Source: Candidatus Velamenicoccus archaeovorus (lineage in GTDB: Bacteria; Omnitrophota; Gorgyraeia; Velamenicoccales; Velamenicoccaceae). From it: a DNA stretch of 32,000 nt. Shown piece after piece: positions 5,739 to 31,734 of this stretch; the stretch's first letter is position 1; every line of letters begins with the position of its first letter. Below the pieces are notes generated by a model, which was not told where the DNA came from, did no database searches, and saw only the letters and a program-made list of their open reading frames with translations. The stretch covers positions 1,470,001-1,502,000 of the forward strand of contig NZ_CP019384.1 of the NCBI RefSeq assembly GCF_004102945.1, written 5' to 3'. The translations under genes were made by a program, and so were the position numbers.

Positions 5739-6401
5739 TCATGCCGTCCGACCCTCTCTTTCGCTGTTGCGTCTAATGATAATATTAAAACACAAGAGGC
5801 CTGAAAAAACCACAAAAAGAATTATCCCCCAAAGAGTTGCGGCCGTAACCCCTTCCCTTTTAACAAATAAAGAAAACCACAAAAAGAGAAAAACAGCCAA
5901 AAGCAAAAATCCGCAGACACGGATAAACTCTCCGTTCTTGAAAGACTGCCTTATATCAAAAGGCCGGATGTCGGCCTTGCTGTACCTGCGCGGGGCTGGG
6001 AACATCATCGGCACACTCCTTAAATACTCGCGATAGGCGGCGCCGAATTTCTCCTCCAGGACTTGTTGTTCCTCCCGGATGGTCCCGGCATAGAGAATCA
6101 AAAAACCCAGGAAATAATACAACAAGAGCCACATGTTGTTGGCAACGATCACAACGCCCAATCCTACGATAAAATTGCCCAGATAGAGCGGATTGCGCAC
6201 ATACGCATAAGGCCCGGCCGTCGTCAAAACCCTGGATTTAGAAATGTAGCCGCTCGCCCAGAACCGCACACCGAGCCCCACAAGCTCGACGGCGATGCCT
6301 ACCCACAGGGACACATCGGTGATACGGGCCAAAAAAGGATACACAAGGAACAGGGGATACACCAGCCACAGCCGCAATTTTTTAAAACGGATCTTCTGCA
6401 T
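5739..6401 (-). CDS. Membrane methyltransferase of the ICMT/PEMT-like family
   Basis: 220 aa, multi-[17 protein letters not shown] motif and a C-terminal EEQ..LEEKFG..Y..Y pattern typical of isoprenylcysteine carboxyl methyltransferase-like proteins. Confidence 0.65.
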
Positions 6402-8277
6402 GGGCGTCCTTTTCTTTTTGTAGTTTGGCGATCATGACCATCAACAGCGAGACAGCCGCCGGCGTCACACCGGAGATACGGGAAGCCTGTCCAAGGGAGA
6501 CCGGCCTGAATTTCTTCAGTTTCTCGACGATCTCCGTAGAAAGCCCCCTCACCGCGGCATAATCCATATCCTGCGGGATACGTATGTTCTCGGTTTTCTT
6601 GAAACGCTCCACCTCATCCGCCTGGCGCCGGATGAACCCTTCATATTTGACTTCCGTCTCGACCTGCGCGTCCAGCTGCGGCGTCAGGAACGGAAGGTTG
6701 TCGTCGATATGGTTCATCTTCCTGACGTGCGCAAAAGTGATCTGCGGCCGCCGCAGCAGCTCTTCCAGGCTCACCGTGCCCTCCAAAGGCGACGTCCCCA
6801 GCGTTTCAAGATACGGATTGGCTTCGGCGGCCCCAAGCTTTGTGGCACGCAGGTAGGCGATCGCCTCCCCGATCCGGCGCTTCTTGTCCTCGACGGCCTG
6901 ATAGGCCGCCTCGTCCAATAGGCCGATGCGGCGGCCGCGCGCCGACAGGCGCAGGTCGGCATTGTCCTGGCGCAAAATGAGACGATACTCCACACGTGAA
7001 GTAAACATCCGGTAGGGCTCCTGGGTGCCTTTGGTCGTCAGATCGTCGATGAGAACGCCGATATAGGCCTCATCCCTCGAAAGGATGAAAGCCCCCTTTC
7101 CCTGAACCCGCAGGGCGGCGTTGATGCCAGCGACGAGCCCCTGGGCCGCCGCCTCTTCATATCCTGTCGTGCCATTGATCTGCCCAGCCAGAAAAAGATT
7201 GCGGTAGAGTTTTGTCTCGAGCGTCGGGAACAATTGGGTGGGGTCGACATAATCATATTCAATGCCGTAGCCGGGCCTCATCATCCGCGCCCGCTCAAGC
7301 CCCTTGATCGAATGGACCATCTCCATCTGGACGTCCACGGGCAGGCTGGTCGAGATGCCGTTCGGATAGACCTCAACGGTATCGAACCCTTCGGGCTCCA
7401 GGAATATCTGGTGCCTGTCGCGGTCGGCAAACCGCACGACCTTGTCTTCGATGGAGGGGCAATAGCGCACGCCCGTCGACGTGATTTTTCCCGTATAAAG
7501 TGGAGAACGGTCCAGCCCGCAACGGATGATCTCATGCGTCCGCGAATTCGTAAAGGTCACATAGCACGGTTTCTGCATCACCTCAAGCGACGGCGTCCGG
7601 AAAGAGAAAGGCGATGGGGGCTCGTCGCCGTCCTGGCGCTGGAGGGCTTCATAATCAATGCTGCGGGCGTCCAGGCGCGGGCAGGTACCGGTCTTGAAAC
7701 GGCTCACCCGGAAACCGAGGCGTTTGAGATCGTCCGACAGGCCGCTCGACGGCGCCTCGCCCAGGCGGCCGCCGGGAAAATGGGTCAGGCCGATATGGAT
7801 CAAACCGTTCAAAAACGTCCCCGGCGTCACGACAACAGTCTTGGCCTCGAACGATTCCCCTGAAGATGTCTTGACCCCGACGACAACAGGGCCGTCCGTC
7901 AGAAAACCGGTGACTTCGGCCTGCCGCACCTCCAAACGCCCTTGTCTTTCAAGCTCCGTCTTGACATAAGCCTTGTAACGGAACATATCTTCCTGGACCC
8001 GCAAGGAGCGTACCGCAGGCCCCTTGGAGGCGTTGAGCATGCGGAATTGCATACCGCAGGCATCGGCAGCCTTCCCCATCAGGCCGCCCAGGGCATCGAC
8101 TTCGCGAACCAGCTGGGACTTGCCGATGCCGCCGATCGCCGGGTTGCACGACATGGCGCCGATCGCCTCAAGGTTCATCGTCACCAGCAGGACGCGGCAT
8201 CCCATGCGGGATGCGGCATGCGCCGCCTCTGCTCCCGCGTGGCCCGCTCCGACGATAATGACATCATAATGCTTCAT
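6382..8277 (-). CDS. mnmG: tRNA uridine 5-carboxymethylaminomethyl modification enzyme MnmG (GidA)
   Basis: 631 aa. FAD-binding [14 protein letters not shown] and full-length colinear MnmG motifs ([11 protein letters not shown]-like [26 protein letters not shown]). Confidence 0.97.
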
Positions 8278-8280
8278 CGG

Positions 8281-8358
8281 TGGAATCCCCCCGGACTTAA
8301 AGCCCAGGGCTCCTTTTTTCTTGGGAACAATTCCCCAAATGATCTTATCGGCTGGCCG
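8281..8358 (-). promoter_or_regulatory. Repeated leader block upstream of mnmG (copy 1)
   Basis: 8309-8357 is 48/49 identical to 13292-13340. Followed by a hairpin and GGGGGGA just before the mnmG ATG. Confidence 0.7.
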
Positions 8359-8417
8359 GGAAGGCTCCCTCCCAGAGGCAACCGTCCTTCATGGCCGGGG
8401 AATTAAATCTCAGAAAA

Positions 8418-8545
8418 AATCCCAAACACCAAATACCAAACTCCAGACAATATTCAAATTCCAACCGGCCAATGGCCAAACTTTTTGTTTGGAAATTTTG
8501 GTTATTGGAATTTGTTTGGGATTTGGAAATTGGGATTTGGGATTT
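8418..8545. repeat. Heptamer-phased CCAA/TTGG imperfect palindrome (about 128 bp)
   Basis: ccaa starts at 8422, 8429, 8436 (and ccag at 8443), 8461, 8469 and 8476. ttgg starts at 8489, 8498, 8505, 8516, 8523, 8530 and 8537. Centre is ccaaactttttgtttgg. Confidence 0.85.
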
Positions 8546-13260: not shown

Positions 13261-13343
13261 TAGAATCCCCCGCTGGACTTTATAGTCCAGAGCTCCTTTT
13301 TTCTTGGGAACAATCCCCCAAATGATCTTATCGGCTGGCCGCG
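13261..13343 (-). promoter_or_regulatory. Repeated leader block upstream of the flavodoxin gene (copy 2)
   Basis: 13292-13340 matches 8309-8357 (48/49). Followed by the perfect hairpin ctggact-ataa-agtccag. Confidence 0.7.
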
Positions 13344-13532: not shown

Positions 13533-14780
13533 TCATGCGTCCTTATGCAACTCCTGCGCCCTGGAAAGCGAAAAACGGGCCAGGATGGGCCCCACCAGCT
13601 CGTGGATCACGCAGGCCCCGATGATGATGCTGACAATCATATCGGATATGTGACTGAAGGCTGTATTGGCCTTGACGAGAAGCGCCAGGCCGATCACGAT
13701 GCCGCCTTGCGGGATGAGGCCGCCGGCGGTGTATTTGCGCACCTTGTCCGACGAACGCGCCAGGCGCGCGCCCGCATAGACCCCCATTGCTTTTCCGGCA
13801 AAACGGAAAACAATGAAAAAAAGGACCAAAACGAGGCTCGCGCCGAGGACCGAAAAATTCAAGTACATGCCGCTGAGGGTAAAAAATATAACGAAGACCA
13901 GCTCTTCGGTATAGCGTTCCAGGACAGAAAAGATCTCTTCCCTGACAGGACTGAAGTTGACGACCACCATCCCCATGGTCATCGTAGACAGGAGTTCTTC
14001 CACATGAAGGAAACGCGCCATACCGTAACAAAGGATGGTCAGGGCAAAGACGGCGACGATCATGAATCCCTCGCCTTCGCGATAAATAAGTCGCATCACG
14101 AAGAGAAAAATGACGCCGAACAAGATCCCAAGCCCGACGGCACCAAAAATAACCCCCACGGGACCGAAAAACGTCGCGAGGGCGCTGACATGCTCATGCA
14201 AAACCATGGCCTGCGCTACGACCATCGCGATGCTGTAATTCATGATCCCCGTCACGTCATCGAGGGCGGCGACGCCCATGATGGTGGACGTCACCTCTCC
14301 GGAAGCCTTATATTCATGGGTGACGGCGAGGGTCGCCGAAGGGTCCGTCGGCGAAGCCAGCGCCCCCATCAGCAAGGCAAACGGCAGGTAGACCCAAAAA
14401 CTGCTGTGGCCCGGCGCCGACGGCAAAAAGAACGGCGCCACGGCGGCCATCCCCGCGATGACCACAAAAAAAGCGCACTCCGCCTCAAAAAGCGTAATGA
14501 AAAGAATGCTCCTGCCGAGGCTTTTGACACGAGGATAGAAGAGCGTGCCGCCGATGGAAAACGTGATGAAACTCAGCGCTACATCTGTGATGATCTCGGC
14601 ATGCCGGACAAAGCTCTGGGGGACGATATTCGTAAAACCGGGATTGAGGAGAATGCCGGCGAAGATATAGCCGGTGATCTTGGGAAGCCTCAGGCGAACC
14701 GCAAGCTCCCCGAAGACAAGCCCAAGAAAAATGATGATGCCCGCAACCAGGATTAACGGCAAAGAAATGTTCATGGGCAC
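13533..14780 (-). CDS. Cation:proton antiporter (CPA1/CPA2 Na+/H+ exchanger family)
   Basis: 415 aa with about 11-12 TM segments. Sequence pattern typical of the Na_H_Exchanger family (LPKITGYIFAGILLNP, ASPTDPSAT). Confidence 0.85.
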   Translation of the reverse strand: MPMNISLPLILVAGIIIFLGLVFGELAVRLRLPKITGYIFAGILLNPGFTNIVPQSFVRHAEIITDVALSFITFSIGGTLFYPRVKSLGRSILFITLFEAECAFFVVIAGMAAVAPFFLPSAPGHSSFWVYLPFALLMGALASPTDPSATLAVTHEYKASGEVTSTIMGVAALDDVTGIMNYSIAMVVAQAMVLHEHVSALATFFGPVGVIFGAVGLGILFGVIFLFVMRLIYREGEGFMIVAVFALTILCYGMARFLHVEELLSTMTMGMVVVNFSPVREEIFSVLERYTEELVFVIFFTLSGMYLNFSVLGASLVLVLFFIVFRFAGKAMGVYAGARLARSSDKVRKYTAGGLIPQGGIVIGLALLVKANTAFSHISDMIVSIIIGACVIHELVGPILARFSLSRAQELHKDA

Positions 14781-14920
14781 AGGAGGATGTTTGTTTTTCT
14801 TGCCCTGCGCCAGCCCCGAACCCGGCTGAACGCTCCATGAAAATATTTCACAATCGGTTCATGGCGGTGCAGGGTTTCGCTGCACACCGTCAGAAAAGAA
14901 ACCGCCGGCCTGCTCGCTTG

Positions 14921-14972
14921 TCTCGGCCCTGGCCTTGCACCTGGCCTTGCCCGAAGAGCAGGCCGAGGCCAG
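14921..14972. repeat. GC-rich element, copy 2 (degenerate)
   Basis: tctcggccctggccttgcacctggccttgcccgaagagcaggccgaggccag. Shares ctggccttgcccgaagRgcaggccgagg with copy 3. Confidence 0.65.
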
Positions 14973-15080: not shown

Positions 15081-15608
15081 CTAACGCCTGTTTTCATCAA
15101 GCCTGGCGCGCACCTTGCGCATAAAAATCAGAAGGCTCTCTATCGAAGGCGGCAGGGCATTATATTCCATCTCGATACGCTTCTCCAACCGGGGCGTCGT
15201 GACCTCCAGCCATTCGGCACCCTGATCATAGCAATCCGGGCATCCATATCTGTCCTGCGCGGACACAAATTCCGTCGCCTCGATGAGGTTTTTGAGGATG
15301 TTATACTCGGAAGGCGATAAATAACGCGTGACCTCGACGGGCGGATAGCGGGAATCGGGCGGCTGGCTGGACTTCTTGAAAGCGGCCTTCCGCCCCTCGA
15401 TGACAAGTTCGGCATCGGAATACCCCACGCATACGCCGAAATGATAGCCGTTCTTCACGATGAACTCCGGCTCCTTTGTTTCTTTTTCCCGGAGGGGATT
15501 TCCCTGCGCGGAAAAAGAAACAATTAACAATGAAAAATTAAAAATGAACAAATAAAAAAAACAAAGACCCGCGCGGAAACGATACCCTGCCTTCCTTTGT
15601 GTCCTCAT
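15081..15608 (-). CDS. Secreted protein of unknown function
   Basis: Start trimmed to MRTQRKAGYRFRAGLCFFYLFIFNFSLLIVSFSAQG (signal peptide). Contains CPDC. The N-terminal extension in the track is translated repeat DNA. Confidence 0.6.
   Translation of the reverse strand: MRTQRKAGYRFRAGLCFFYLFIFNFSLLIVSFSAQGNPLREKETKEPEFIVKNGYHFGVCVGYSDAELVIEGRKAAFKKSSQPPDSRYPPVEVTRYLSPSEYNILKNLIEATEFVSAQDRYGCPDCYDQGAEWLEVTTPRLEKRIEMEYNALPPSIESLLIFMRKVRARLDENRR
15526..15545. repeat. AT-rich inverted repeat, left arm
   Basis: aacaatgaaaaattaaaaat is 19/20 identical to the reverse complement of 15853-15872. Lies inside the signal-peptide codons of the 15081-15608 gene. Confidence 0.7.
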
Positions 15609-15776
15609 GAATCTCCCCGGGCTTCGCCCTCGCCCGAGCGAGGACAGGCCCGGGGTTTCTTTCCTAGATGATCCCGCCAGTTTGCTACGCAAACTCCCGG
15701 CGGGATAATCGTTGTGCATTTCCGCCACCACAACTTAGGCGGACCCGCCGATCTTTGATGGCGGGCAGCCCCTGTT

Positions 15777-15826
15777 TCGGCCTGCCCCTGGCCTTGCCCG
15801 AAGGGCAGGCCGAGGGCAAGGCCAGG
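15777..15826. repeat. GC-rich interleaved inverted-repeat element, copy 3
   Basis: tcggcctgcc (15777-86) pairs with ggcaggccga (15804-13). cctggccttgcc (15787-98) pairs with ggcaaggccagg (15815-26). 29 nt are identical to the reverse complement of copy 1. Confidence 0.85.
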
Positions 15827-24597: not shown

Positions 24598-25497
24598 TCA
24601 AATCAACCCTCTGCGCCCCAATCCCTTGTAGACCACCAGATGGTCCTGCTCCTGCGTCAGGGGCTTTTTCTTGCGCCAAAAATGATGATAGACATGTTGC
24701 GTGATCTCTTCTCTCTGTTTGAGGCTGTAGCGATGCACCTGCGGATAGAGAAGGATCATCCACACCACGGCCATGAACTTCTCGAAATCATCGACATAAA
24801 AATTGACGCGGTTTGTCCGCAGCAATACCTGCGCTTTTTTAAAAACCGTCTCCCTCTGCAGGTCTTTTTTGAGCTGGCGCAGGTCCTGGTCGTTATAGGC
24901 GCCGAAGAATTTCCCGGCGAAATGATTATAGAGCCAGGTCGTGGTGGAGGGATCTTTGCTTTTTGAGCTCATGAGCACCGCATGGATGGCTGCGCGAGGC
25001 GCCAGAAAACCGCGGTACAAATTCTTAAAAAGCTCGAGCCAGCAACATTGCCGGCAATAATAGAGCGAATGGTGGAGGGTGGCCAGGTGGACCCACCTCT
25101 TCCCCAGCCTGTCCCTGAAAAAATCCCTTGCTTTCTGCGGATCCAAAAATATCCTGTTAAAATCGCACTTGATGGTCGTCACATGGTCCGTGCGCTGGCG
25201 CTTGATACGCTCCTGAACAATGCCGAGGGCGCAATCGTTGATATCCAAGAGATACAACCCGCCGCGGAAAGCCGTCTCCAGGATCCTGAACTGCGGCTCG
25301 TCGCTTGAACCGATGGAGAGCGCGCGCAACTCTGCATGCAGGGGCATGCCTTTGTCGAGGGTGCGTATCACCCGGGCAAGCTCCTCCCCTATATCCACCT
25401 TGTCATGGCTGTAGCGCGACCATATCTTGTCCTGATCGCAAACATTTTTTTCAGAAACATGGATGCCTTTTTCGATCAAACTTATATATGATGACAT
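24598..25497 (-). CDS. Possible SAM-dependent methyltransferase (HNMT-like pattern)
   Basis: ALSIGSSDEPQFRILE resembles the histamine N-methyltransferase LSIGGGAGEID motif I, and HHSLYYC resembles MLYYV. Start uncertain (25497, 25563 or 25626). Function tentative. Confidence 0.45.
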   Translation of the reverse strand: MSSYISLIEKGIHVSEKNVCDQDKIWSRYSHDKVDIGEELARVIRTLDKGMPLHAELRALSIGSSDEPQFRILETAFRGGLYLLDINDCALGIVQERIKRQRTDHVTTIKCDFNRIFLDPQKARDFFRDRLGKRWVHLATLHHSLYYCRQCCWLELFKNLYRGFLAPRAAIHAVLMSSKSKDPSTTTWLYNHFAGKFFGAYNDQDLRQLKKDLQRETVFKKAQVLLRTNRVNFYVDDFEKFMAVVWMILLYPQVHRYSLKQREEITQHVYHHFWRKKKPLTQEQDHLVVYKGLGRRGLI

Positions 25498-25704
25498 GGA
25501 ATGCTTGTCCTTTTTACAAGAGAGACGGGAAATATTCCTTATACGGATCCCGGCTTCGCTCATGCCATCAGCCGGTCGGCATGTTGCCTGACGGTCCATC
25601 GTCGCACGCCCGATTGACCCCTGCATCAGAAAACCCCGGATTCCCTGCCTTGCCGGCAGGCTGGCTGTCTGGGAATGAAGGTCCGGCGCAGGATTTCGCT
25701 ATGC

Positions 25705-25765
25705 ACTAAAAACAAAAGAAGCCGCCGCTCCGTCTGCCTGCTTGTCGAAGATAAGCAGGCAGACG
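25705..25765 (-). terminator. Strong 13-bp hairpin plus a distal U-rich tract at the downstream edge of the cassette island
   Basis: cgtctgcctgctt-gtcgaagat-aagcaggcagacg (25731-25765). In the minus sense it is followed after 10 nt by UUCUUUUGUUUUU, so the geometry is not canonical. Confidence 0.4.
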
Positions 25766-25778
25766 TGCCGGCGAAGCT

Positions 25779-26255
25779 TCACTTTGTCAACAGGCAAAGA
25801 AACCCAAGGATAAAACTCCCGTAACCAAAGACAATAAAAACGGCCTTAAAGCACGTGGAGTAGGTCCATCCCTTTTTGTAGGGAGAGCTCTGCGACTGTC
25901 CTGAAAAATAATCATCCCTGGCAAAAATCCGCAGGACATGCGGCCCTTCCTTATACGCCCCCAGATCGATTTGTTCATCGAGATACTTTAATGCCGCTTC
26001 TCCGTTCCTGACGAGACGCATATTTCTGGCTTCGAATTTCCAAAAAACAAAAGAAAGAAATGCCAATAAAAAAGGAAGAAGACACGACCATTTTGAACAC
26101 GACATCGCCGGGTCTTTTGAAAAAGCAATAAAGGCGCCGATGATAAAAGTCGCAAGCGTTACATACAAATTAAAGGTTTTGAGTCTTTGGTCGGCATGCA
26201 TTGAAAAATAATTCCATGCGTAGCTCCTCATCACCTCGTAGTATTTGTCTTCCAT
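25779..26255 (-). CDS. 3-TM membrane protein of unknown function (last gene of the island)
   Basis: Start trimmed to MEDKYYEVMRSYAWNYFSMHADQRLKTFNLYV (ATG at 26255). The tracked N-terminal extension starts at a TTG inside the palindromic element. About 43% GC in a sampled line. Confidence 0.6.
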   Translation of the reverse strand: MEDKYYEVMRSYAWNYFSMHADQRLKTFNLYVTLATFIIGAFIAFSKDPAMSCSKWSCLLPFLLAFLSFVFWKFEARNMRLVRNGEAALKYLDEQIDLGAYKEGPHVLRIFARDDYFSGQSQSSPYKKGWTYSTCFKAVFIVFGYGSFILGFLCLLTK

Positions 26256-26263
26256 AAGGCCCC

Positions 26264-26300
26264 TATCTCTTGATCGAAGCCGAGCTTCGATCAAATCTCA
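26264..26300. repeat. 37-bp palindromic boundary element, copy A
   Basis: tatctc-ttgatcgaagc-cga-gcttcgatcaa-atctca: a perfect 11-bp stem with a 3-nt centre. Lies between the lipoprotein stop (26308) and the next start (26255). Confidence 0.9.
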
Positions 26301-26307
26301 AACGGGA

Positions 26308-26796
26308 TTAATCTTGCGACAAAGACACCGGCGCCAATCCTTTGACAAAGCCGGTCTTTTCATCGAACTCGAAACGATACAAACCCGGCGGCAACGGCTC
26401 AGCTTGCAGCGATACTCCCTGGGCTTTCATCAGAACCCCGCTGACAGACGTCGCCAGACCTGAAATGGCATTCATCGTCTCCGGGATCTTGGAATCCCTG
26501 GTATCGCCCATCTTGGTAAGCTGCCAGCCATCGGTCAGGTCAAACGTCGCATTGACCGTCCCTAGCCCGCCGTGTACCTTGATGACGTATTCTTCGTTTA
26601 TCCGGGGCAGATAGACGACCTTGCTATCCACTTTGCCATCCGCGTTGCTGACAACCAACAAATAGGGCCACGGCCGGTAGAAATAAATGCCACCCGTCCC
26701 GGCGTTCTTGTCCGTCACCTTCGCAATCTCGATACCGGCGCAGCCCGCCATCATCAAAAGGAACCCTGCGACCACCGACCAAAGACCTCTTTTCAT
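26308..26796 (-). CDS. Lipoprotein of unknown function
   Basis: 162 aa. Signal peptide plus lipobox (FLLMMAGC). SD GGGGGAGGG. Starts 28 nt after the lipase stop, with no repeat between the two genes. Confidence 0.7.
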   Translation of the reverse strand: MKRGLWSVVAGFLLMMAGCAGIEIAKVTDKNAGTGGIYFYRPWPYLLVVSNADGKVDSKVVYLPRINEEYVIKVHGGLGTVNATFDLTDGWQLTKMGDTRDSKIPETMNAISGLATSVSGVLMKAQGVSLQAEPLPPGLYRFEFDEKTGFVKGLAPVSLSQD

Positions 26797-26824
26797 TGTT
26801 CCCTCCCCCGTGGATTTTTGAAAT

Positions 26825-27727
26825 CTATTCTTTATCTAATCTCGAGACGGCATAATTAGCAAGTTTGCAGCAATACAAATCACAGGCATGATGTTGTATC
26901 CCAAGCCCGATCCTCCAAAGATTAAAATAACGACATCTGGCGTCGATAAAACCTGGGTTAGGAACCAGCCTTAAATCCATGAAATCATCGCGGCAAGGCG
27001 TCAGGTAGCGCTGGTCGCCATGATGAGCGTAAAACCCCCGCTCACTGAAAAAATGCTCCAAAATATTGTAGGATTTAAAAAAACTGATCCAGTATATTAA
27101 CTCGACGATGAAAGGAAACGGCACCCGAGGGACCAAATCATTGGCGTTCACAATGCGATATATGGGAGGCTTTATCGTGTCTCCAAGCTCGCTATTTCCC
27201 ACCCGCGGACTTCCGAAAGTATAGCAGGCGGCGATATTGTCCGAACTTAGATATTTCGCCGCCACGAGAGCCAAGGCCCCGCCTAAAGAATGGCCAGTAA
27301 TGTAGATAGCAAAATTTTCTTTCTCCAGATTGCGCACCTCCTCTTCTAACATTTTCTGGGCGCATGCAAAGGCCCGTTGAAAACCATTATGGATCTTGGC
27401 CCCCTTCCCGGCCCTATAAAACCTGAAATCCAAATCAGTAAGAATATCCCACCATTTCTTTACCTCGGTCCCCCTGAATGCCAATACGGCGATCTTATCC
27501 TGTTCCCTTCTTGCCAAAAACCCTTGAGTTTCGCTTTCGCTGAAAGGACGGATTAGCTTAAATCCAAGTTCGCCGAGATGCATTTCCAACTTCTTTCGGA
27601 TCTTTTCCGAATTCTCAAATTCAAGATAAGCAAGACTGGACATCTCTGCCAGAAGCCAGGCCATCCTGTCGCTATACGCGGCCCGCATCGTAGGGGGTTC
27701 CAGCAACGTAACTCTTCTTGCCAACAT
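26825..27727 (-). CDS. Class 3 (Lipase_3-type) lipase, no signal peptide
   Basis: GHSLGGALA nucleophile elbow in ITGHSLGGALALVAAKY, with FRGT upstream. Start trimmed to MLARRVTLLEPP (ATG at 27727, SD GGAG). The tracked TTG start lies in repeat DNA. Confidence 0.8.
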   Translation of the reverse strand: MLARRVTLLEPPTMRAAYSDRMAWLLAEMSSLAYLEFENSEKIRKKLEMHLGELGFKLIRPFSESETQGFLARREQDKIAVLAFRGTEVKKWWDILTDLDFRFYRAGKGAKIHNGFQRAFACAQKMLEEEVRNLEKENFAIYITGHSLGGALALVAAKYLSSDNIAACYTFGSPRVGNSELGDTIKPPIYRIVNANDLVPRVPFPFIVELIYWISFFKSYNILEHFFSERGFYAHHGDQRYLTPCRDDFMDLRLVPNPGFIDARCRYFNLWRIGLGIQHHACDLYCCKLANYAVSRLDKE

Positions 27728-27740
27728 CTTTTTCTCCGCT

Positions 27741-27791
27741 TTCTCGATCAAATCGAAGCCTTGATCGAAGCCGAGCTTCGATCAAGGCTCA
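27741..27791. repeat. Palindromic boundary element, copy B (extended stem plus a scrambled partial arm)
   Basis: gcc-ttgatcgaagc-cga-gcttcgatcaa-ggc (14-bp stem, 27758-27788). The 25-nt core is identical to copy A. Preceded by the partial tctcgatcaaatcgaagc. Confidence 0.85.
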
Positions 27792-27794
27792 TTC

Positions 27795-28256
27795 CTATTT
27801 TTTTATCACCCGGAAGGTGTGATGCACGGCGTCGCTGAACAGAAGCTGCTGCGCGCTGTTGACCTGCTTGAGGCACCATGTGTAGGTCTTGCCGTCCCTG
27901 AAAAGATCGGCCGGCACCTCAATCTCCGTATGCAGACCGGAAACCTGCTCATGGTAGATGGCGCCATTCTGGGACGTCTCGTTCTCCAGGTAAATACGGA
28001 AAAGATAACAATAAACATCGTAGGGCGTATGGGCCGGTTTCCAGCTGAACTTCACGGTCTTCTGCCCGCTGATATCCAGGGTCTCGCCCACGGGCGCCAC
28101 CAGCGTCGGGCTCGGCACACGGAACACCACGGTATTGGCCGGCGCACCGACGGGTTTCTCTTGCGGCGCCGGAGCAGTCTTTTCTTCTCCTGCGCCAACC
28201 TCCGCGCCCCACAAGAAAACCGCCGCCAAAACCAAAGCGTACGTTTTATAGCACAT
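27795..28256 (-). CDS. Small secreted protein, paralog 3 of the family (P3)
   Basis: 153 aa. Signal peptide, then VPSPTLVAPVGETLDISG...FSWKP...YLFRIY...IYHEQV...FRDGKTYTWCLKQ...FRVIKK. One sampled 60-nt line is about 72% GC. Confidence 0.7.
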   Translation of the reverse strand: MCYKTYALVLAAVFLWGAEVGAGEEKTAPAPQEKPVGAPANTVVFRVPSPTLVAPVGETLDISGQKTVKFSWKPAHTPYDVYCYLFRIYLENETSQNGAIYHEQVSGLHTEIEVPADLFRDGKTYTWCLKQVNSAQQLLFSDAVHHTFRVIKK

Positions 28257-28324
28257 GGGCCACCCCCTCCAACCTCCGCCTCAACCATCTTAATGAGACT
28301 TTAAGGCCAGACCTGTTTGTCTCA

Positions 28325-28858
28325 TTATCGTCCGGCTTTTTGCTTCACTTTCTCGGGATCACAGGGCTGACGAAGGATCGCGCCTAAATCCAACAGATTA
28401 AACTCATCATCCATGTTCAAATCAGAACGCTCCAATGTCCCGCGGCATTCATGGCACACATAGAGCATTTTAAGATACTTGCCCATGACATTGCGAGGAA
28501 TTTCGTAACGATTTTCAAGACCCCACCACTCCAGAAGGTCTTTATCACCCTTGGAAGAATTGCATTTCTTACACGACTTGACGATATTGTGGATTTCCGC
28601 AAAGTGACATTCGCGCTTGGCGACGATATGATCGTTGCTCAAGTCGACCGTCGCGCCGCAATAGATGCACTTCGTCTGGTCCATATGCAGGTCTTCACGC
28701 AAGATCTGCGACCACTTCATCTCGCCTGTCTGCAGCTTCTTGAACGAGCTCATGACAAAGCCATAATTCTTACGGTCGCCAAGCGCCGACCCCGAAATTA
28801 GCTTCGCATATTCCCAAAAAATCAAATCACGGATTGTTTTAACGGCTTTAGGTGGCAT
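28325..28858 (-). CDS. HNH endonuclease domain protein
   Basis: 177 aa. CIYCG...DHIVAK...HNIV..CKKCNSSKG (CxxC...DH...N...CxxCN..K HNH/zinc-finger pattern). About 47% GC in a sampled line. Confidence 0.8.
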   Translation of the reverse strand: MPPKAVKTIRDLIFWEYAKLISGSALGDRKNYGFVMSSFKKLQTGEMKWSQILREDLHMDQTKCIYCGATVDLSNDHIVAKRECHFAEIHNIVKSCKKCNSSKGDKDLLEWWGLENRYEIPRNVMGKYLKMLYVCHECRGTLERSDLNMDDEFNLLDLGAILRQPCDPEKVKQKAGR

Positions 28859-28869
28859 ATTATTGAATT

Positions 28870-29004
28870 TTACGAGAGGAGCTCTTGTCTCTTGATCGAA
28901 GCTCTCTTGATTGAAGCCGAGCTTCGATCAAAGCTCAAACTATAAAATGTATTGAACAATAGAATGATTGCCCATATTATTACGATGACTATCATTAACC
29001 ACAT
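28870..29004 (-). CDS. Candidate 44-aa hydrophobic peptide between two repeat copies
   Basis: MWLMIVIVIIWAIILLFNTFYSL followed by a basic tail (SFDRSSASIKRASIKRQELLS) that is translated repeat DNA. Purine-rich AGAGAGA upstream. Speculative. Confidence 0.25.
   Translation of the reverse strand: MWLMIVIVIIWAIILLFNTFYSLSFDRSSASIKRASIKRQELLS
28888..28937. repeat. Palindromic boundary element, copy C (15-nt left half duplicated in tandem)
   Basis: tctcttgatcgaagc (28888-28902) then tctcttgattgaagc-cga-gcttcgatcaa-agctca. One T/G mismatch in the stem. Confidence 0.9.
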
Positions 29005-29025
29005 AGTCTCTCTTTTGAAACGCGT

Positions 29026-29062
29026 TATCTCTTGATCGAAGCTCGGCTTCAATCAAATCTCA
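29026..29062. repeat. 37-bp palindromic boundary element, copy D (core inverted)
   Basis: tatctc-ttgatcgaagc-tcg-gcttcaatcaa-atctca. The core is the exact reverse complement of the copy C core. The terminal tca is the DUF2085 stop codon. Confidence 0.9.
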
Positions 29063-29401
29063 AATAAATCGTCCAATTAAATTAATAATAATTCTCCACC
29101 CCGCAGCGCCTACGCCAATACCGCCAATAATTCCAGTTATAAACCTCCGGGGGTTCGTCGACATAATCCTAAACCATTCTTGAGCAAACCAATCCAGGAA
29201 GATCAAAAACATAAAAAATAAACACACGGGAAAAGATGGTAATGATCCTATCAAAAACAAAAAAAATGAAAACACATGTCCGAGACTCGCTCCGAAACAA
29301 CGAGCACAAAATGGCATAGGCTTGCCTCGAAATGTAAAACTCCTCTCCGGCAACTTATGACATCCCATCTTTGCAATCAAGAGCGTTAAAGCAATATTCA
29401 T
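29060..29401 (-). CDS. DUF2085-like membrane protein
   Basis: 113 aa. CHKLPERSFTFRGKPMPFCARCFG motif (CHxxPERSF...CARC) plus TM segments. The start ATG overlaps the upstream TAA (TAATG). Confidence 0.65.
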   Translation of the reverse strand: MNIALTLLIAKMGCHKLPERSFTFRGKPMPFCARCFGASLGHVFSFFLFLIGSLPSFPVCLFFMFLIFLDWFAQEWFRIMSTNPRRFITGIIGGIGVGAAGWRIIINLIGRFI

Positions 29402-29688
29402 TAGGAAGCTTTCAATTCCCAGCTAAACCCACATTTCTGACAAACATTAAATAACTTATTTGCGTCAGAAGCACCGCAGAGAAGACCAAGGGGACCCAAA
29501 AGAATCGCTCCGCAACATGCACCTCCTGCATCATATCCTTTCTTGGTCGTTGTAATTGATGTGGAACCGCATTTGGGACAAGTTGCAGCAGAGGTCTTAG
29601 CTTCTTTTTTGGGCAGTATTTCACCACAATGCTTACATTTAATCGCTTCATCTTGTATCTCTTCAGCACAGAAAGGACATTTTTTCAT
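29401..29688 (-). CDS. Double zinc-ribbon protein
   Basis: 95 aa. CPFC...CKHCG, CPKCG and CQKCG pairs, with a G/C-rich hydrophobic segment between them. Confidence 0.7.
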
Positions 29689-29697
29689 AGAAACCTC

Positions 29698-29728
29698 TAT
29701 ATCAAAGGGTTATTTGCAAAGTGTCGAG
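29698..29728. repeat. Second boundary motif, copy a (more diverged)
   Basis: tatatcaaagggttatttgcaaagtgtcgag. Shares tatRtcaaagggtta with copies b and c. Lies between the 57-aa ORF stop and the zinc-ribbon start. Confidence 0.6.
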
Positions 29729-29738
29729 AATTAAATAG

Positions 29739-29912
29739 CTAAAACATTGCTGGCACACTTGCAGAAGAAATAAGCAATCCGAATAAGCAGACTATTGTGA
29801 CTAAGCCAAAGATCGCCAGCATAATTTTTGTTCCAATGCCGACATTCTTCGACATCTCACTGTATCTTGCCAAAATATACAACCCAATCATCAACCCGAT
29901 TATTGGAATCAT
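29739..29912 (-). CDS. 57-aa two-TM peptide, unannotated in the ORF track
   Basis: Own translation gives MIPIIGLMIGLYILARYSEMSKNVGIGTKIMLAIFGLVTIVCLFGLLISSASVPAMF. Strong SD AAAAGGAGG lies 8 nt upstream of the ATG at 29912. Confidence 0.5.
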   Translation of the reverse strand: MIPIIGLMIGLYILARYSEMSKNVGIGTKIMLAIFGLVTIVCLFGLLISSASVPAMF

Positions 29913-29994
29913 TGCCTTATACCTCCTTTTTACAGCTCTGAGAAATCCTTAATCCATTTTTGTCCAAACGAGAACACCTCCACCGGAAATCTAA

Positions 29995-30023
29995 TTATGT
30001 CAAAGGGTTAGCGGTACCCAGTC
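29995..30023. repeat. Second boundary motif, copy b
   Basis: ttatgtcaaagggttagcggtacccagtc. 25/29 identical to copy c. Non-coding here, lying just 3' of the stop at 30033. Confidence 0.75.
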
Positions 30024-30032
30024 ATTTACCAA

Positions 30033-30875
30033 TTATTTAGAACTGTAATGATTTACAGTATAGGAAAGGATGGAACCAATAATATCCATATTATTTCTAT
30101 CATTAAACTGGATTAGCCTCGGTTTTGATCGATTGTTTTCTGAAAACTGCATTCCGTCGGCATAAAACTGAATATCCAAAATTTTATCCAAGTTAGTCGC
30201 AAAAGATTTTCTATCACCCCGAAATATAAGTCTTTTGCTGGAAAATATTAATTCCCCGTCACTCGTAGAAACATTTCCTTTTTCCACAACAGGATATCCT
30301 CTGAAGCCGCCTACGCGATAACTAACCCCTTTCATCACTCTGAAGCTAAGCCCACTGTACCCGCCTTCGTAGTGCCTGCTCAAAACTTTTTCTTCCAACA
30401 AAGAAGCGGGCTCTGACCAATATACCTGTTCCCCCTTCTTTAGAACGATATTTGCGATTTGTAGGGTTGGCATATTGCCGTTCTGGATCTCTCTCACCAG
30501 GCGATATCTAGCAAGTATCTTCTTTTTAGCTTCGATTAAATCATCACTCAGATTTAATTCTTTCTGAATATTGTTCAGCTCTTTTTCTTCCTCTTCTGTA
30601 AGAGTTGAATCGTCCACTGCCTTATTAAAGGCGGCCATATAAGCATCAATCTTTGCAACCTTTATATCTTCGTCATTAAGGCATAGCTCTGATTTTCTGC
30701 TTTCAATTTGTTTTATCTCTTCCGCTGTTAATTTACCGTCCGATGCCAGCTGTATCATCTCATCTTTCAATAACTGAATATTTACTTCCTTCTTCAGTTG
30801 GGCTTCTTTTTCCTGTTTTCTTTGCTCGGCAATCTGTTTCCATTCTTCAATCTTCTTCTTTATAAATTGAAGCAT
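30033..30875 (-). CDS. Coiled-coil protein with a C-terminal bacterial PH (YokE/GRAM-like) domain candidate
   Basis: Start trimmed to MLQFIKKKIEEW (ATG at 30875, SD GGGGAGG). Two LTxEE...L.L.D.DI repeats. C-terminal LKKGEQVYW...STSDGELIFSSKRLIFRGDRKS resembles the bPH pattern. About 27% GC in a sampled line. Confidence 0.55.
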   Translation of the reverse strand: MLQFIKKKIEEWKQIAEQRKQEKEAQLKKEVNIQLLKDEMIQLASDGKLTAEEIKQIESRKSELCLNDEDIKVAKIDAYMAAFNKAVDDSTLTEEEEKELNNIQKELNLSDDLIEAKKKILARYRLVREIQNGNMPTLQIANIVLKKGEQVYWSEPASLLEEKVLSRHYEGGYSGLSFRVMKGVSYRVGGFRGYPVVEKGNVSTSDGELIFSSKRLIFRGDRKSFATNLDKILDIQFYADGMQFSENNRSKPRLIQFNDRNNMDIIGSILSYTVNHYSSK

Positions 30876-30901
30876 GCCATGCCTCCCCTGAGTCAGAGCT
30901 A

Positions 30902-30938
30902 TATCTCTTGATCGAAGCTCGGCTTCAATCAAATCTCA
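30902..30938. repeat. 37-bp palindromic boundary element, copy E
   Basis: tatctcttgatcgaagctcggcttcaatcaaatctca. 37/37 identical to copy D, which lies 1.9 kb away in unrelated flanks. Confidence 0.9.
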
Positions 30939-30993
30939 CAGACCACTTAACCAAATCGTGATTATCTGAATACCATTTATTTCTCATAAATAT

Positions 30994-31022
30994 TTATGTC
31001 AAAGGGTTATTGGTGCCCGGTC
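30994..31022. repeat. Second boundary motif, copy c
   Basis: ttatgtcaaagggttattggtgcccggtc. Here it encodes the last 9 codons plus the stop (GPGTNNPLT*) of the 246-aa ORF. Confidence 0.75.
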
Positions 31023-31734
31023 CATCGTTATCTCGTTGATCAAAATGTGCTTTAATTCTTCCTATCGACTCTTTTATCTCCTTTCGATCATGGAAATCAA
31101 TGAGTAATTTATAGCTCATAGCATTTGTCTCCAGAATATAAGCAATTTTTTGGAGTTCGCCTATTAATGCGTAAAATTTTTCAGATCTAGAATTGAAATT
31201 TTCAATTCGTTTTAAATATTCATCGAATATTTCAGTCGCCGCTGCTCTAATCTTATCACCTTCTACAAATTCTTTAATAGCTATACAAAGATCATACTCG
31301 TAAAAATTAGTTGATTCTTCCACGAGAATAAAAAGATGCTGTGCCTGTTCGTAAAATATCCTACCATCTTCGCCTGTTAAAGAAAAAAGCTTATAAAAAG
31401 GAAGAGAATATAAAGACTCTTGTTTCATTCTCAGAAATCTTAAGGGAGAATAATCGTCTGATGATAACTTTATCCCAGTAGCCTGTTTTTCTTTGAATAT
31501 TTTTAAAATACGCAAAGAATGAGCGAAGTTTTCTCTAAAAATACCAAGCGCATGTTCAATTCTTTCAATCAGAATATCAATTCCATGTTCCAAATATCGC
31601 TTAACAATCTGCTCATTTTCTCTCTGAACCAAATACTGTCTCCGCCAAAACAAATACGCAAAAAATGCAGGAATTAAATATTTAACTACCTCTGCGCTCC
31701 AATTCCCTAAAAAAACAAGCAGTCTTTCTTTCAT
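30994..31734 (-). CDS. N-terminally TM-anchored helical protein of unknown function
   Basis: 246 aa. TM segment VVKYLIPAFFAYLFW, SD GGAGG, AT-rich (about 35% GC in a sampled line). No recognisable motif. Confidence 0.6.
   Translation of the reverse strand: MKERLLVFLGNWSAEVVKYLIPAFFAYLFWRRQYLVQRENEQIVKRYLEHGIDILIERIEHALGIFRENFAHSLRILKIFKEKQATGIKLSSDDYSPLRFLRMKQESLYSLPFYKLFSLTGEDGRIFYEQAQHLFILVEESTNFYEYDLCIAIKEFVEGDKIRAAATEIFDEYLKRIENFNSRSEKFYALIGELQKIAYILETNAMSYKLLIDFHDRKEIKESIGRIKAHFDQRDNDGPGTNNPLT

Follow-up and report, generated by a model that had tools for sequence, protein, structure and literature searches.

The stretch of DNA considered here, 'the window' in what follows, is the portion of 32,000 nucleotides of CP019384, the 1,974,201-bp chromosome of Ca. 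Velamenicoccus archaeovorus LiM, an ultra-small predator of methanogenic archaea and among the very few Omnitrophota that have been studied. Near one end of the window is an island of genes, BU251_07000 to BU251_07040, in which a short palindrome, here called PAL, recurs between genes; the remainder of the window encodes ordinary core functions. PAL is 25 nt long, TTGATYGAAGC-NNN-GCTTCRATCAA, with an 11-bp stem and a 3-nt loop, and this pattern was used for the searches of the window and of sequence collections alike. An earlier note, made from the sequence alone, had described five near-identical palindromes at this place, and there are indeed five: the pattern search places their cores at 26270, 27761, 28907, 29032 and 30908, where the expectation from 100 shuffles is 0, and a repeat finder returns the 37-nt units, A to E, as one family. 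The repeat finder agrees too that D and E are identical at 37/37 positions and that A and B have the same 25-nt core. The start positions given earlier were right for A, D and E and off by 2-3 nt for B and C, which really start at 27755 and 28901. No sixth site is present in the window, even allowing 3 mismatches. In the order in which the genes are read, the features are as follows.

30994-31734, minus strand: 246-aa protein BU251_07040 (QAT17485), without known domain; GC 33%
30990-31022, minus strand: copy of a second repeat, R2, with a degenerate -10-like part; it extends over the 3' end of the 246-aa gene
30902-30938, minus strand: PAL unit E, TGAGAT-TTGATTGAAGC-CGA-GCTTCGATCAA-GAGATA on the gene strand; 55 nt past the stop of the 246-aa gene and 32 nt ahead of the start of the 280-aa gene
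30033-30875, minus strand: 280-aa protein BU251_07035, without known domain; GC 38%; weak match to the defence candidate PDC-S48
29991-30023, minus strand: R2 repeat, GACTGGGTACCGCTAACCCTTTGACATAATTAG, upstream of the 57-aa membrane-protein gene
29739-29912, minus strand: TM57, a 57-aa membrane protein
29699-29714, minus strand: left half of R2, AATAACCCTTTGATAT, directly joined to the ribosome-binding site of the zinc-ribbon gene; conserved in the related loci L053 and L055
29401-29688 and 29060-29401, minus strand: overlapping zinc-ribbon and DUF2085 genes, 95.8% identical to L053 and L055
29026-29062, minus strand: PAL unit D, of the same sequence as E; the TGA of its left flank (29060-29062) is the stop codon of the DUF2085 gene
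28901-28937, minus strand: PAL unit C, with a core that is reverse-complementary to that of D/E and flanks that keep the gene-strand orientation; next start codon 48 nt downstream
28881-28902, minus strand: half-palindrome scar, the right arm and flank of C (GCTTCGATCAAGAGA) duplicated in tandem just upstream of the HNH gene
28325-28858, minus strand: HNH endonuclease QAT17481, 177 aa, with an HNH domain only and weak PtuB-like matches
27795-28256, minus strand: secreted 153-aa protein C1, BU251_07015, the commonest module in related arrays; detected as protein
27755-27791, minus strand: PAL unit B, its stem extended by GCC/GGC to 14-15 bp; 3 nt past the stop of C1 and 33 nt ahead of the lipase start
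27733-27754, minus strand: debris after B, in which pieces of a right arm (GCTTCGAT) and of a left arm (TTGATCGA) adjoin; conserved in L020
26825-27727 and 26308-26796, minus strand: class-3 lipase and lipoprotein
26264-26300, minus strand: PAL unit A, 7 nt past the lipoprotein stop and 14 nt ahead of the start of the 8xMP/2TM-effector gene
25779-26255, minus strand: 158-aa membrane protein of the 8xMP family, UniRef name 'SMODS and SLOG-associating 2TM effector'
25731-25765, minus strand: hairpin of ~15 bp at the boundary of island and core, followed by a separate short GC stem and a T-run on the gene strand
24598-25626, minus strand: class I SAM (S-adenosylmethionine)-methyltransferase (homologues ~299 aa), then a DUF488 and a PNPOx-like gene; conserved core flank

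All genes from 25.7 kb to the end of the window are on the minus strand, and all five PALs are intergenic and close to gene 3' ends, as had been claimed (D at the stop, the others as listed). Read on the gene strand, a unit consists of TGAGAT, an 11-bp arm, 3 nt, an 11-bp arm and GAGATA, and the next start codon, with its ribosome-binding site, follows 14-48 nt past A, B, C and E. An orthologous copy of A is present in L025. Each of the five folds to a stable hairpin of -15 to -27 kcal/mol (E, -17.6; B, -27 with z -5.4), and scans of the window with Rfam and for tRNAs gave no match. No T-run follows any PAL on the gene strand, where GAGATA-type or GGCTTC sequence is found instead, and a terminator scan of the PALs reports B only, and that on the opposite strand.

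GC content per gene ranges from 33 to 57% in the island, against 55% in the core; the heterogeneity noted earlier therefore stands, and the values then taken from 60-nt samples do not, as they overstated the extremes (the '72%' unit has 57%). Nor were two further descriptions to survive: between D and C there is, in place of the 'tiny hydrophobic peptide', an open reading frame (ORF) running into PAL C, with no homologue in the compared loci, and PAL-delimited units are not single cassettes but hold one to four genes, the E-to-D unit having four. The half-palindrome debris and the R2 stretches listed above had been overlooked. The GenBank name of QAT17481, 'CRISPR-associated endonuclease Cas9', is an annotation error since the protein is of only 177 aa and has HNH only. 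The exact sequence of TM57 has no match in the protein collection, nor does any CP019384 accession correspond to it.

Are the genes behind PAL expressed? Values were taken from a published metatranscriptome and metaproteome of this organism's culture (PMC12583861, Table S1), mapped via accessions and given as transcripts per million (TPM) per gene, not per base. Transcripts of the genes that immediately follow A, B, C and E stand at 8.9-18.4 TPM, and the proteome contains three of the four products: 8xMP after A (11.3 TPM), the lipase after B (8.9) and BU251_07035 after E (15.9), the HNH gene after C (18.4) being the one whose protein was not detected. BU251_07040, at the far end, has 3.6 TPM and its protein is detected. 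PAL does not, then, stop downstream expression. The 14-33 nt beyond A, B and E leave no room for a promoter, and read-through transcription is therefore likely there; the 48 nt beyond C might suffice for one. The lipoprotein BU251_07005, at a riBAQ (relative intensity-based absolute quantification) of ~1078 ppm, is among the abundant proteins of the metaproteome, which is unusual for a strain-variable slot and may have a bearing on contact with prey.

A slot behind nrdJ and the distribution of PAL

In relatives (loci with handles beginning in L) the array starts right after nrdJ, the gene for class II ribonucleotide reductase, which has its own classical hairpin-plus-T-run terminator, and it ends at a SAM-methyltransferase/DUF488/PNPOx block, the same flank as that of the window's island. 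The succession of nrdJ, terminator, variable array and conserved block recurs in L021, L023, L029, L037 and L053. Every array gene has the direction of nrdJ, and gene order and content vary among strains. L029 has PARIS AriA (E = 1e-68) with a partner gene, L031 a ThsB-like TIR protein (8e-19), L021-L023 restriction-endonuclease-like, ORC/CDC6-AAA plus cold-shock-domain and DAC-like proteins, and L037 Imm_superinfect and ORF6N proteins; HNH genes occur among the relatives as well. At the place of the 8xMP gene, the last variable module, a different gene is found in L021, L029 and L037, and the order itself is permuted, with C1 before the lipase and lipoprotein in the window and after them in L023, L029 and L019. 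Many assemblies break within the array. From this comparison the array is a hypervariable slot, bounded by conserved genes, of Velamenicoccus-lineage Omnitrophota, and what the earlier note had supposed of it, that it is strain-variable, heterogeneous in composition, co-oriented and furnished with a conserved structured boundary element, is supported. One homologue of the distal flank, P0128 (70% identity), was set aside, being in another genomic context without an array. As an aside on the proximal flank, some nrdJ genes of Omnitrophota (P0034, P0035, P0046, P0048 and others) encode ~1180 aa with intein and LAGLIDADG domains (PF14890, PF14528).

The scans of collections register exact pattern matches only. 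On that footing, one genome each for 185,579 species yields four single PAL copies, never more than one per representative genome, and the JGI metagenomes yield 23 stretches, of which those with several copies lie in related arrays. The copies that have both the family loop (TCG or CGA) and the flanks are clustered and stem from few samples. L020 and L025 belong to one 87-kb contig (Ga0172367_10000220) that has five PALs, all in the array; L022 has three, and L011, L012, L024 and L026 have two exact copies each. In the 332 kb of sequence compared, no hairpin family other than PAL has more than one copy. The related genome UBA6210 has one exact PAL in a core intergenic region (L002) and a copy with 1 mismatch in its array (L048), and in both L002 and L013 a single PAL sits between a terminator and a promoter. 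The viral contigs of IMG/VR, searched with the full palindrome and then with its inner 21 nt, hold no member of the family; a viral origin was rejected, the six matches to the inner 21 nt having other loops and flanks and being unrelated.

Could PAL nevertheless be an ordinary repetitive extragenic palindrome (REP) of genome-wide occurrence, or an intrinsic terminator, that just happens to be dense here? The earlier note had named two grounds on which its own reading would fall, hundreds of copies behind ordinary core genes, and gene content invariant among relatives with no associated recombinase; as far as the data reach, neither is the case. The idea of a REP or terminator, to which a stable hairpin after stop codons does lend itself, is largely refuted and by now scarcely credible. 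PAL is rare and local, and therefore neither a genome-wide REP nor a generic terminator: at 3 mismatches there is none in the other 25 kb of the window, there is none elsewhere in the 87-kb contig, and representative genomes have at most one exact copy. It has no T-run on the gene strand although the lineage uses classical terminators, and the genes downstream are expressed. The resemblance to the REPs and BIMEs (bacterial interspersed mosaic elements) of Enterobacteria and Pseudomonas is real, those being intergenic palindromes of 25-40 nt just past the stops of co-directional genes, and PAL is, like them, a palindrome of 20-40 nt after stop codons. However, REPs and BIMEs are dispersed in hundreds of copies whereas PAL is of low copy number in one hotspot, and PAL has neither a GTAG-type 5' tetranucleotide nor, in the sequence examined, a gene for a REP-associated tyrosine transposase (RAYT). 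REPs act as intercistronic stabilisers of mRNA, for instance in malE-malF, and those within about 15 nt of a stop codon influence translation.

Anatomy and breakpoints of PAL across relatives

Comparison of 33 independent copies shows strong conservation of the left flank, TTTGAGAT, and of all stem positions, with a looser right flank (GAGATA, TGGATA, GATTCA and others). The units, of 37-39 nt, form sub-families, TGAGAT...GAGATA, TGAGGT...TGGATA and TGAGAT...GATTCA, that turn up beside unrelated genes. Nearly all copies keep the T(G/A)A of the left flank, which together with the TGA inside TTGAT gives stops in two frames; in about half of the copies GATA(A/G) (TAR) provides a stop in the third. 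Further, the native TAA or TAG of a gene in one strain is exactly replaced by the TGA of a PAL in another for DUF2085, TM57 and C1. In L053 and L055, for example, the DUF2085 gene has TAA at the same codon and then an unrelated spacer, and in L020, L024 and L011 the TM57 gene stops at the TGA of a PAL unit. The loop occurs as TCG or CGA against the same flanks, the core being thus present in both orientations, and despite these two orientations there is no inverted gene in the arrays.

Stem variants are for the most part C6 to T or G20 to A, changes within a CpG. At three stem pairs both partners have changed and pairing is kept, to an extent matched in 0 of 500 shuffles; one variant, in L033, has exchanged an A:T for a G:C pair, and the L053 hairpin after C1, orthologous to the B junction, has diverged with two compensatory pair changes and still pairs though four of its stem bases differ. 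The dyad symmetry of PAL, as judged from these copies, is maintained. A perfect 11-3-11 dyad conserved at every stem position, with double-sided changes that preserve its symmetry, is also what might be looked for in the operator of a dimeric DNA-binding protein (a regulator, an insulator or a nucleoid protein) governing the island, and the single PAL of L002 and of L013, ~26 nt upstream of a promoter-like -35 element, would suit this, as would the missing bias towards G-U pairs, considered below, which fits a constraint on duplex DNA. Such an operator is nonetheless very improbable. The sites are at the 3' ends of genes, 0-60 nt past stops, and not at promoters; the left flank is directional and carries a stop codon; the four altered stem bases of the L053 orthologue would be intolerable unless the protein had co-evolved; and no candidate regulator is linked to the array.

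The copies are accompanied by debris. Half-palindromes that start 2 nt inside the loop stand beside full PALs at C and B of the window, in L020 and in L022, the scar at C being a 15-nt tandem duplication (Tandem Repeats Finder, 28888-28917, period 15, 93% matches). A PAL in L020 and in L016 is joined to a 3'-end remnant of an HNH gene, the gene's final 45 nt, and in L007 two PALs have no gene between them, only the remnant of a leader. The junction of C1 and lipase holds different PAL units in the window, L020 and L011. The cleanest single-gene 'cassette' found is in L033 (86% nrdJ identity; same contig as GCA_041649995.1), where two decayed PAL variants, 14723-14759 and 15367-15403, surround a single DUF6680 gene.

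When two PALs share a flank, homology typically reaches the palindrome on one side and ends 0-6 nt beyond it on the other. Of 193 clusters of synteny breakpoints, 27 are within 20 nt of a PAL, in zones that make up 1.6% of the sequence, an enrichment of about nine-fold by what is a crude test, as intergenic DNA is breakpoint-prone anyway. That gene order and content differ among relatives with breakpoints at the element, as had been anticipated, is accordingly seen on comparison of the related loci. Does variability depend on PAL? The content of L037, where PAL of this sequence is missing even at up to 4 mismatches, and of L029, with a single copy, is equally variable; many module junctions of the window itself lack PAL. 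L053 is a close relative whose core genes are 92-96% identical to those of the window and which is collinear with the window between the 57-aa gene and the methyltransferase; it has no PAL of the window's sequence, only diverged hairpins. Its DUF2085-to-HNH and lipoprotein-to-8xMP spacers are unrelated to those of the window, with homology breaking exactly at the stop and resuming ~10 nt before the next start; for the former spacer, L053/L055 against the window gives an alignment score of 18, where the shuffle mean is 19.6. No pair among the compared loci differs solely by a PAL unit. On this comparative evidence PAL is a marker of breakpoints, one that variability can do without.

PAL has company at the junctions. 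R2, GGTACCAATAACCCTTTGAcATAATTAG..., has a TGnTATAAT part that fits an extended -10 promoter; at 29991-30023 the window's TGnCATAAT fits an extended -10 promoter and three relatives have a perfect TGnTATAAT there, which suggests that R2 may function as a promoter. Several loci have a fusion in which the left half of R2 precedes PAL. A small palindrome, R3, and diverged PAL-like hairpins are present at junctions as well, with PAL variant forms such as TTGGCCGAAGC... and TTATCGAAGC-TAA-.... A hairpin family (A)TTATCGAAGC-TAA-GCTCTGATAA(T) is found at the array junctions of L053 (8773-8797), L023 (6903-6925) and L016 (~1440-1470), two of these hairpins being just upstream of R2. A permissive hairpin scan, admitting G-T pairs and one mismatch, gave mostly noise, though it did expose diverged PAL-like hairpins. 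Relatives have palindromes of 10/11-3-10/11 geometry (L029 5983-6005, L033 12834-12858, L028 1378-1402), among which types are TGATTTCGCC-NNN-GGCGAAATCA, ~130 nt past the nrdJ terminator, and TTAATTCCGCC-TCC-GGCGGAATTAA, where an adenosine-kinase-like gene ends; these last two have the geometry of PAL and partly its TTGAT/ATCAA ends.

Repeats of other kinds are present elsewhere in the window. A GC-rich family, TGCCCTTCGGGCAAGGCCAGGGGCAGGCCGA, is found between core genes at 428-469, 14919-14971 and 15777-15818, with copies complementary over up to 31/31 positions; against the homologous leader of L013 the copy at ~15777-15818 looks like an insertion and it may be a separate small mobile repeat. 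Just before it, 56 nt with two short GC hairpins (15716-15771) are 93% conserved in the metagenome contig L013 (870-925), where they follow a promoter-like sequence; Rfam has no match for this stretch, which could be a conserved leader or a small RNA. AT-rich arrays of short tandem and inverted repeats of TTGGTTATTGG/AAATACCAAAC type are at 276-382 and 8417-8545, the latter just upstream of mnmG (gidA); both arrays may have a regulatory role or one connected with a nearby origin. Two copies of a direct repeat of 62 nt, with 94% identity, are at 8297-8358, upstream of mnmG, and at 13280-13341, at the start of a flavodoxin-like ORF.

Cassette capture, mobile element or junction module

The earlier note had taken the island for an integron-like or Xer-like cassette system. 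In its sharpest form this reading has a recombinase of tyrosine, serine or HUH type, encoded elsewhere, excising and inserting modules at PAL, an integron analogue without a linked integrase, which seems unlikely. PAL would be the attachment site of an undescribed, integron-independent gene-capture system in Omnitrophota, with the 11-3-11 hairpin and the directional TTTGAGAT flank being recognised, a proposition that is itself doubtful; its corollaries, that modules are joined exactly at stops into a promoterless read-through array behind nrdJ and that the half-sites are off-target products, are no less open to doubt. Much of the anatomy can be read its way. The genes are co-oriented with the site at their 3' ends, and most have no promoter between PAL and start; a homogeneous site accompanies genes of 33-57% GC, a combination known from sedentary chromosomal integrons; breakpoints concentrate at PAL, ending within 0-6 nt of it; the conserved, directional left flank makes the element asymmetric; the half-sites always start at the same position in the loop, which could mean a fixed cleavage point; the HNH-gene junction retains the consensus 'GAG' of the right flank, like a secondary-site event; native stops are exactly replaced in three genes; and assemblies are often broken inside the array. 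Yet Pfam scans of the main ORFs of the 32-kb window detect no recombinase, which bears out the earlier statement that integrase, transposase and RAYT are lacking there, nor is one listed among the genes of the 10 kb that precede nrdJ in relatives (L028, L030, L033, L035, L036). Arrays with zero or one PAL are as variable as the rest, and many junctions are free of it. Debris and tandem half-site duplications would not be expected from conservative site-specific recombination. Tyrosine recombinases have spacers of 6-8 bp and serine recombinases a 2-bp crossover, and 11-3-11 would match either only if the arms were drawn differently. Cassettes are never inverted in spite of the two loop orientations, the spacers of L053 at orthologous junctions are unrelated rather than clean insertions, and there are single copies in core intergenic DNA with no cassette nearby. 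These points, and above all the PAL-poor arrays, the PAL-free junctions, the half-site debris and the lack of a recombinase in the window and the 10 kb upstream of nrdJ, leave the integron/Xer interpretation of the earlier note unsupported.

Integrons, sedentary chromosomal integrons and CALINs (clusters of attC sites lacking integron-integrases) have in common with the PAL array co-oriented and largely promoterless genes, a palindromic structured site at gene 3' ends that sometimes overlaps the stop, homogeneous sites against compositionally varied genes, and strain-variable content with defence cargo. However, the units between PALs are of one to four genes, no intI (window ORFs and 10 kb upstream of nrdJ in relatives), attI or Pc promoter is found here, many array junctions are without PAL and there is imprecise half-site debris. 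An attC site is of 57-141 nt, with R''/L''/L'/R' boxes, a GTTRRRY core and extrahelical bases, and PAL, with 25 nt and a perfect 11-bp stem, has none of these; that it is no canonical attC had been rightly said. The dif/pdif modules of Xer and the arrays of IMEX (integrative mobile elements exploiting Xer) also have modules parted by short palindrome-like sites, with a recombinase that would be encoded elsewhere, but dif is 11-6-11 (~28 bp with a 6-8-bp centre) and PAL 11-3-11, with no alternation of orientation. Set against the dif consensus sequences, PAL has no resemblance to dif. Integron, CALIN, REP/BIME, Xer/dif and intrinsic terminator each fail in at least one tested defining feature.

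Several narrower ideas were rejected. A dif or terminus setting does not suit a window in which GC skew is of one sign nearly throughout, with no lasting switch, and in which there is no strand switch and the flanking genes share one strand; mnmG (gidA) at 6382-8277, ~18 kb from the locus, speaks against it too. The NrdR box, parS, the LexA box and DNA-uptake sequences fit neither in sequence nor in copy number. The HNH cassette is not convincing as the enzyme that acts on PAL, for L023 has PALs and, in the part of its array examined, no HNH gene.

Might PAL itself be what moves? As a miniature non-autonomous element, REP/RAYT-like, akin to the palindrome-associated transposable elements (PATEs) of IS200/IS605 or to a tiny MITE (miniature inverted-repeat transposable element), it would make shuffling a by-product. 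The recurrence of the 37-39-nt unit with both flanks in unrelated contexts and as three sub-families, the different units at the C1-to-lipase junction of the window, L020 and L011, the core in both orientations relative to its flanks, the double PAL of L007 with no gene between, and the close collinear strains that differ in the presence of PAL at a junction could all be cited for it. But no pair of loci with collinear flanks differs only by PAL, the PAL-less junction of L053 has a wholly unrelated spacer, copy number is very low (at most one exact copy per representative genome), and in the relatives' sequence examined there is no gene for RAYT, TnpA or TnpB. Nor is there a consistent target-site duplication; a model built on one was dropped, as GAGAT...GAGAT flanks occur in a subset of units only. 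A mobile element is, on balance, rather improbable.

What is favoured instead, with a probability of roughly 0.45, is that PAL is a portable junction module of stop codon plus hairpin that is also a point of breaking and joining, like the PeSL (promoter-early stem-loop) cassettes of phages rather than like integrons. The array would be transcribed through PAL, and the hairpin would serve as a portable element, of 3'-end or intercistronic kind, that joins a gene at its stop codon or just past it and could protect the 3' end of mRNA or couple the translation of neighbouring genes. PAL would supply stop codon and hairpin and R2 promoter-like sequence, the two together making up array junctions; PAL, specific to this lineage and hotspot, would then be one of several short repeats, with R2, R3 and the diverged PALs, of which those junctions are composed. 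Modules would be joined by recombination, driven by homology or microhomology, between co-existing strains. Perfect palindromes are fragile, and the same 25-39 nt stand between unrelated genes; for both reasons PALs would become sites where modules are deleted, replaced and re-joined. To the directly observed anatomy, restriction to the hotspot, strain variability, breakpoints at PAL, downstream expression and kept dyad symmetry, this reading adds a putative role at the RNA level and a putative route of recombination.

A number of points weigh against the junction module. Among the stem variants there are ~9 T6 and 6 A20 copies, that is, changes compatible with G-U pairing are not favoured on the gene strand, and this lack of bias gives no positive support for a constraint at the RNA level over one at the DNA level. 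Compensatory changes, moreover, can arise mechanically, via hairpin-templated correction, without selection. All 22 stem positions are almost perfectly conserved between lineages with core genes of only ~80% identity, which goes beyond the need of a simple stem-loop and makes a sequence-specific protein possible; the exact placement at stop codons could likewise reflect a targeting enzyme. For the single PALs of L002 and L013, between a terminator and a promoter, an intercistronic role of the RNA is unlikely. For an exchange that depends on RecA, 25-39 bp is a short repeat length. Finally, TPM values have no consistent step across PALs, going up at E and D/C and down at B and A.

Parallels and meaning

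The closest described parallel to PAL and R2 is the PeSL system, known from the hyperplastic regions of T4-type phages (Arbiol et al. 2010, PMC2839356; Comeau et al. 2014, PMC4122927). There, too, short conserved intergenic motifs, a stem-loop plus promoter-like sequence, are repeated between small, mostly uncharacterised, co-oriented genes of a hypervariable region bounded by core genes, and the breakpoints of indels and replacements between close relatives are at the motifs, as they are at PAL. The setting differs, a phage genome there and a bacterial chromosome here. A PeSL unites a sigma-70-type promoter with a terminating stem-loop, whereas PAL and R2 are usually separate, and PAL, without a T-run, is evidently non-terminating; PAL also carries stop codons and often supplants the gene's own stop. 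Mini-circles form between PeSL motifs, and none is known from PAL.

A second parallel is with the core defence hotspots (cDHS) of Pseudomonas aeruginosa (PMC10250203), which are, like the PAL slot, variable, with the same core-gene bounds in all strains and no recognisable mobile-element genes. The defence cargo of PAL arrays, PARIS AriA, the ThsB-like TIR protein and the PtuB-like HNH, is in keeping with these; the differences are that the PAL slot is structured internally by families of short repeats and that it carries highly expressed surface and secreted proteins.

For this lineage the picture is one of gene flux focused in a single slot behind nrdJ, which is stitched together by short-repeat families of its own, with PARIS AriA and TIR as cargo in relatives and, in LiM, a lipase and a lipoprotein beside the HNH endonuclease and the 2TM effector-like protein. 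The question lends itself to direct testing. Public data on the enrichment culture include, besides the complete genome, deep PacBio sequencing (SRR29679608, of a community of which the organism makes up about 69%), RNA-seq (SRR30230645) and proteomes. Should a dedicated enzyme act on PAL instead, a new cassette-capture system would be at hand. If PAL is the junction module proposed, 'mobile regulatory cassettes' of PeSL type, so far those of T4-type phages, would also work in a bacterial chromosome, and defence hotspots that have no recombinase would gain a concrete mechanism for the turnover of their genes.

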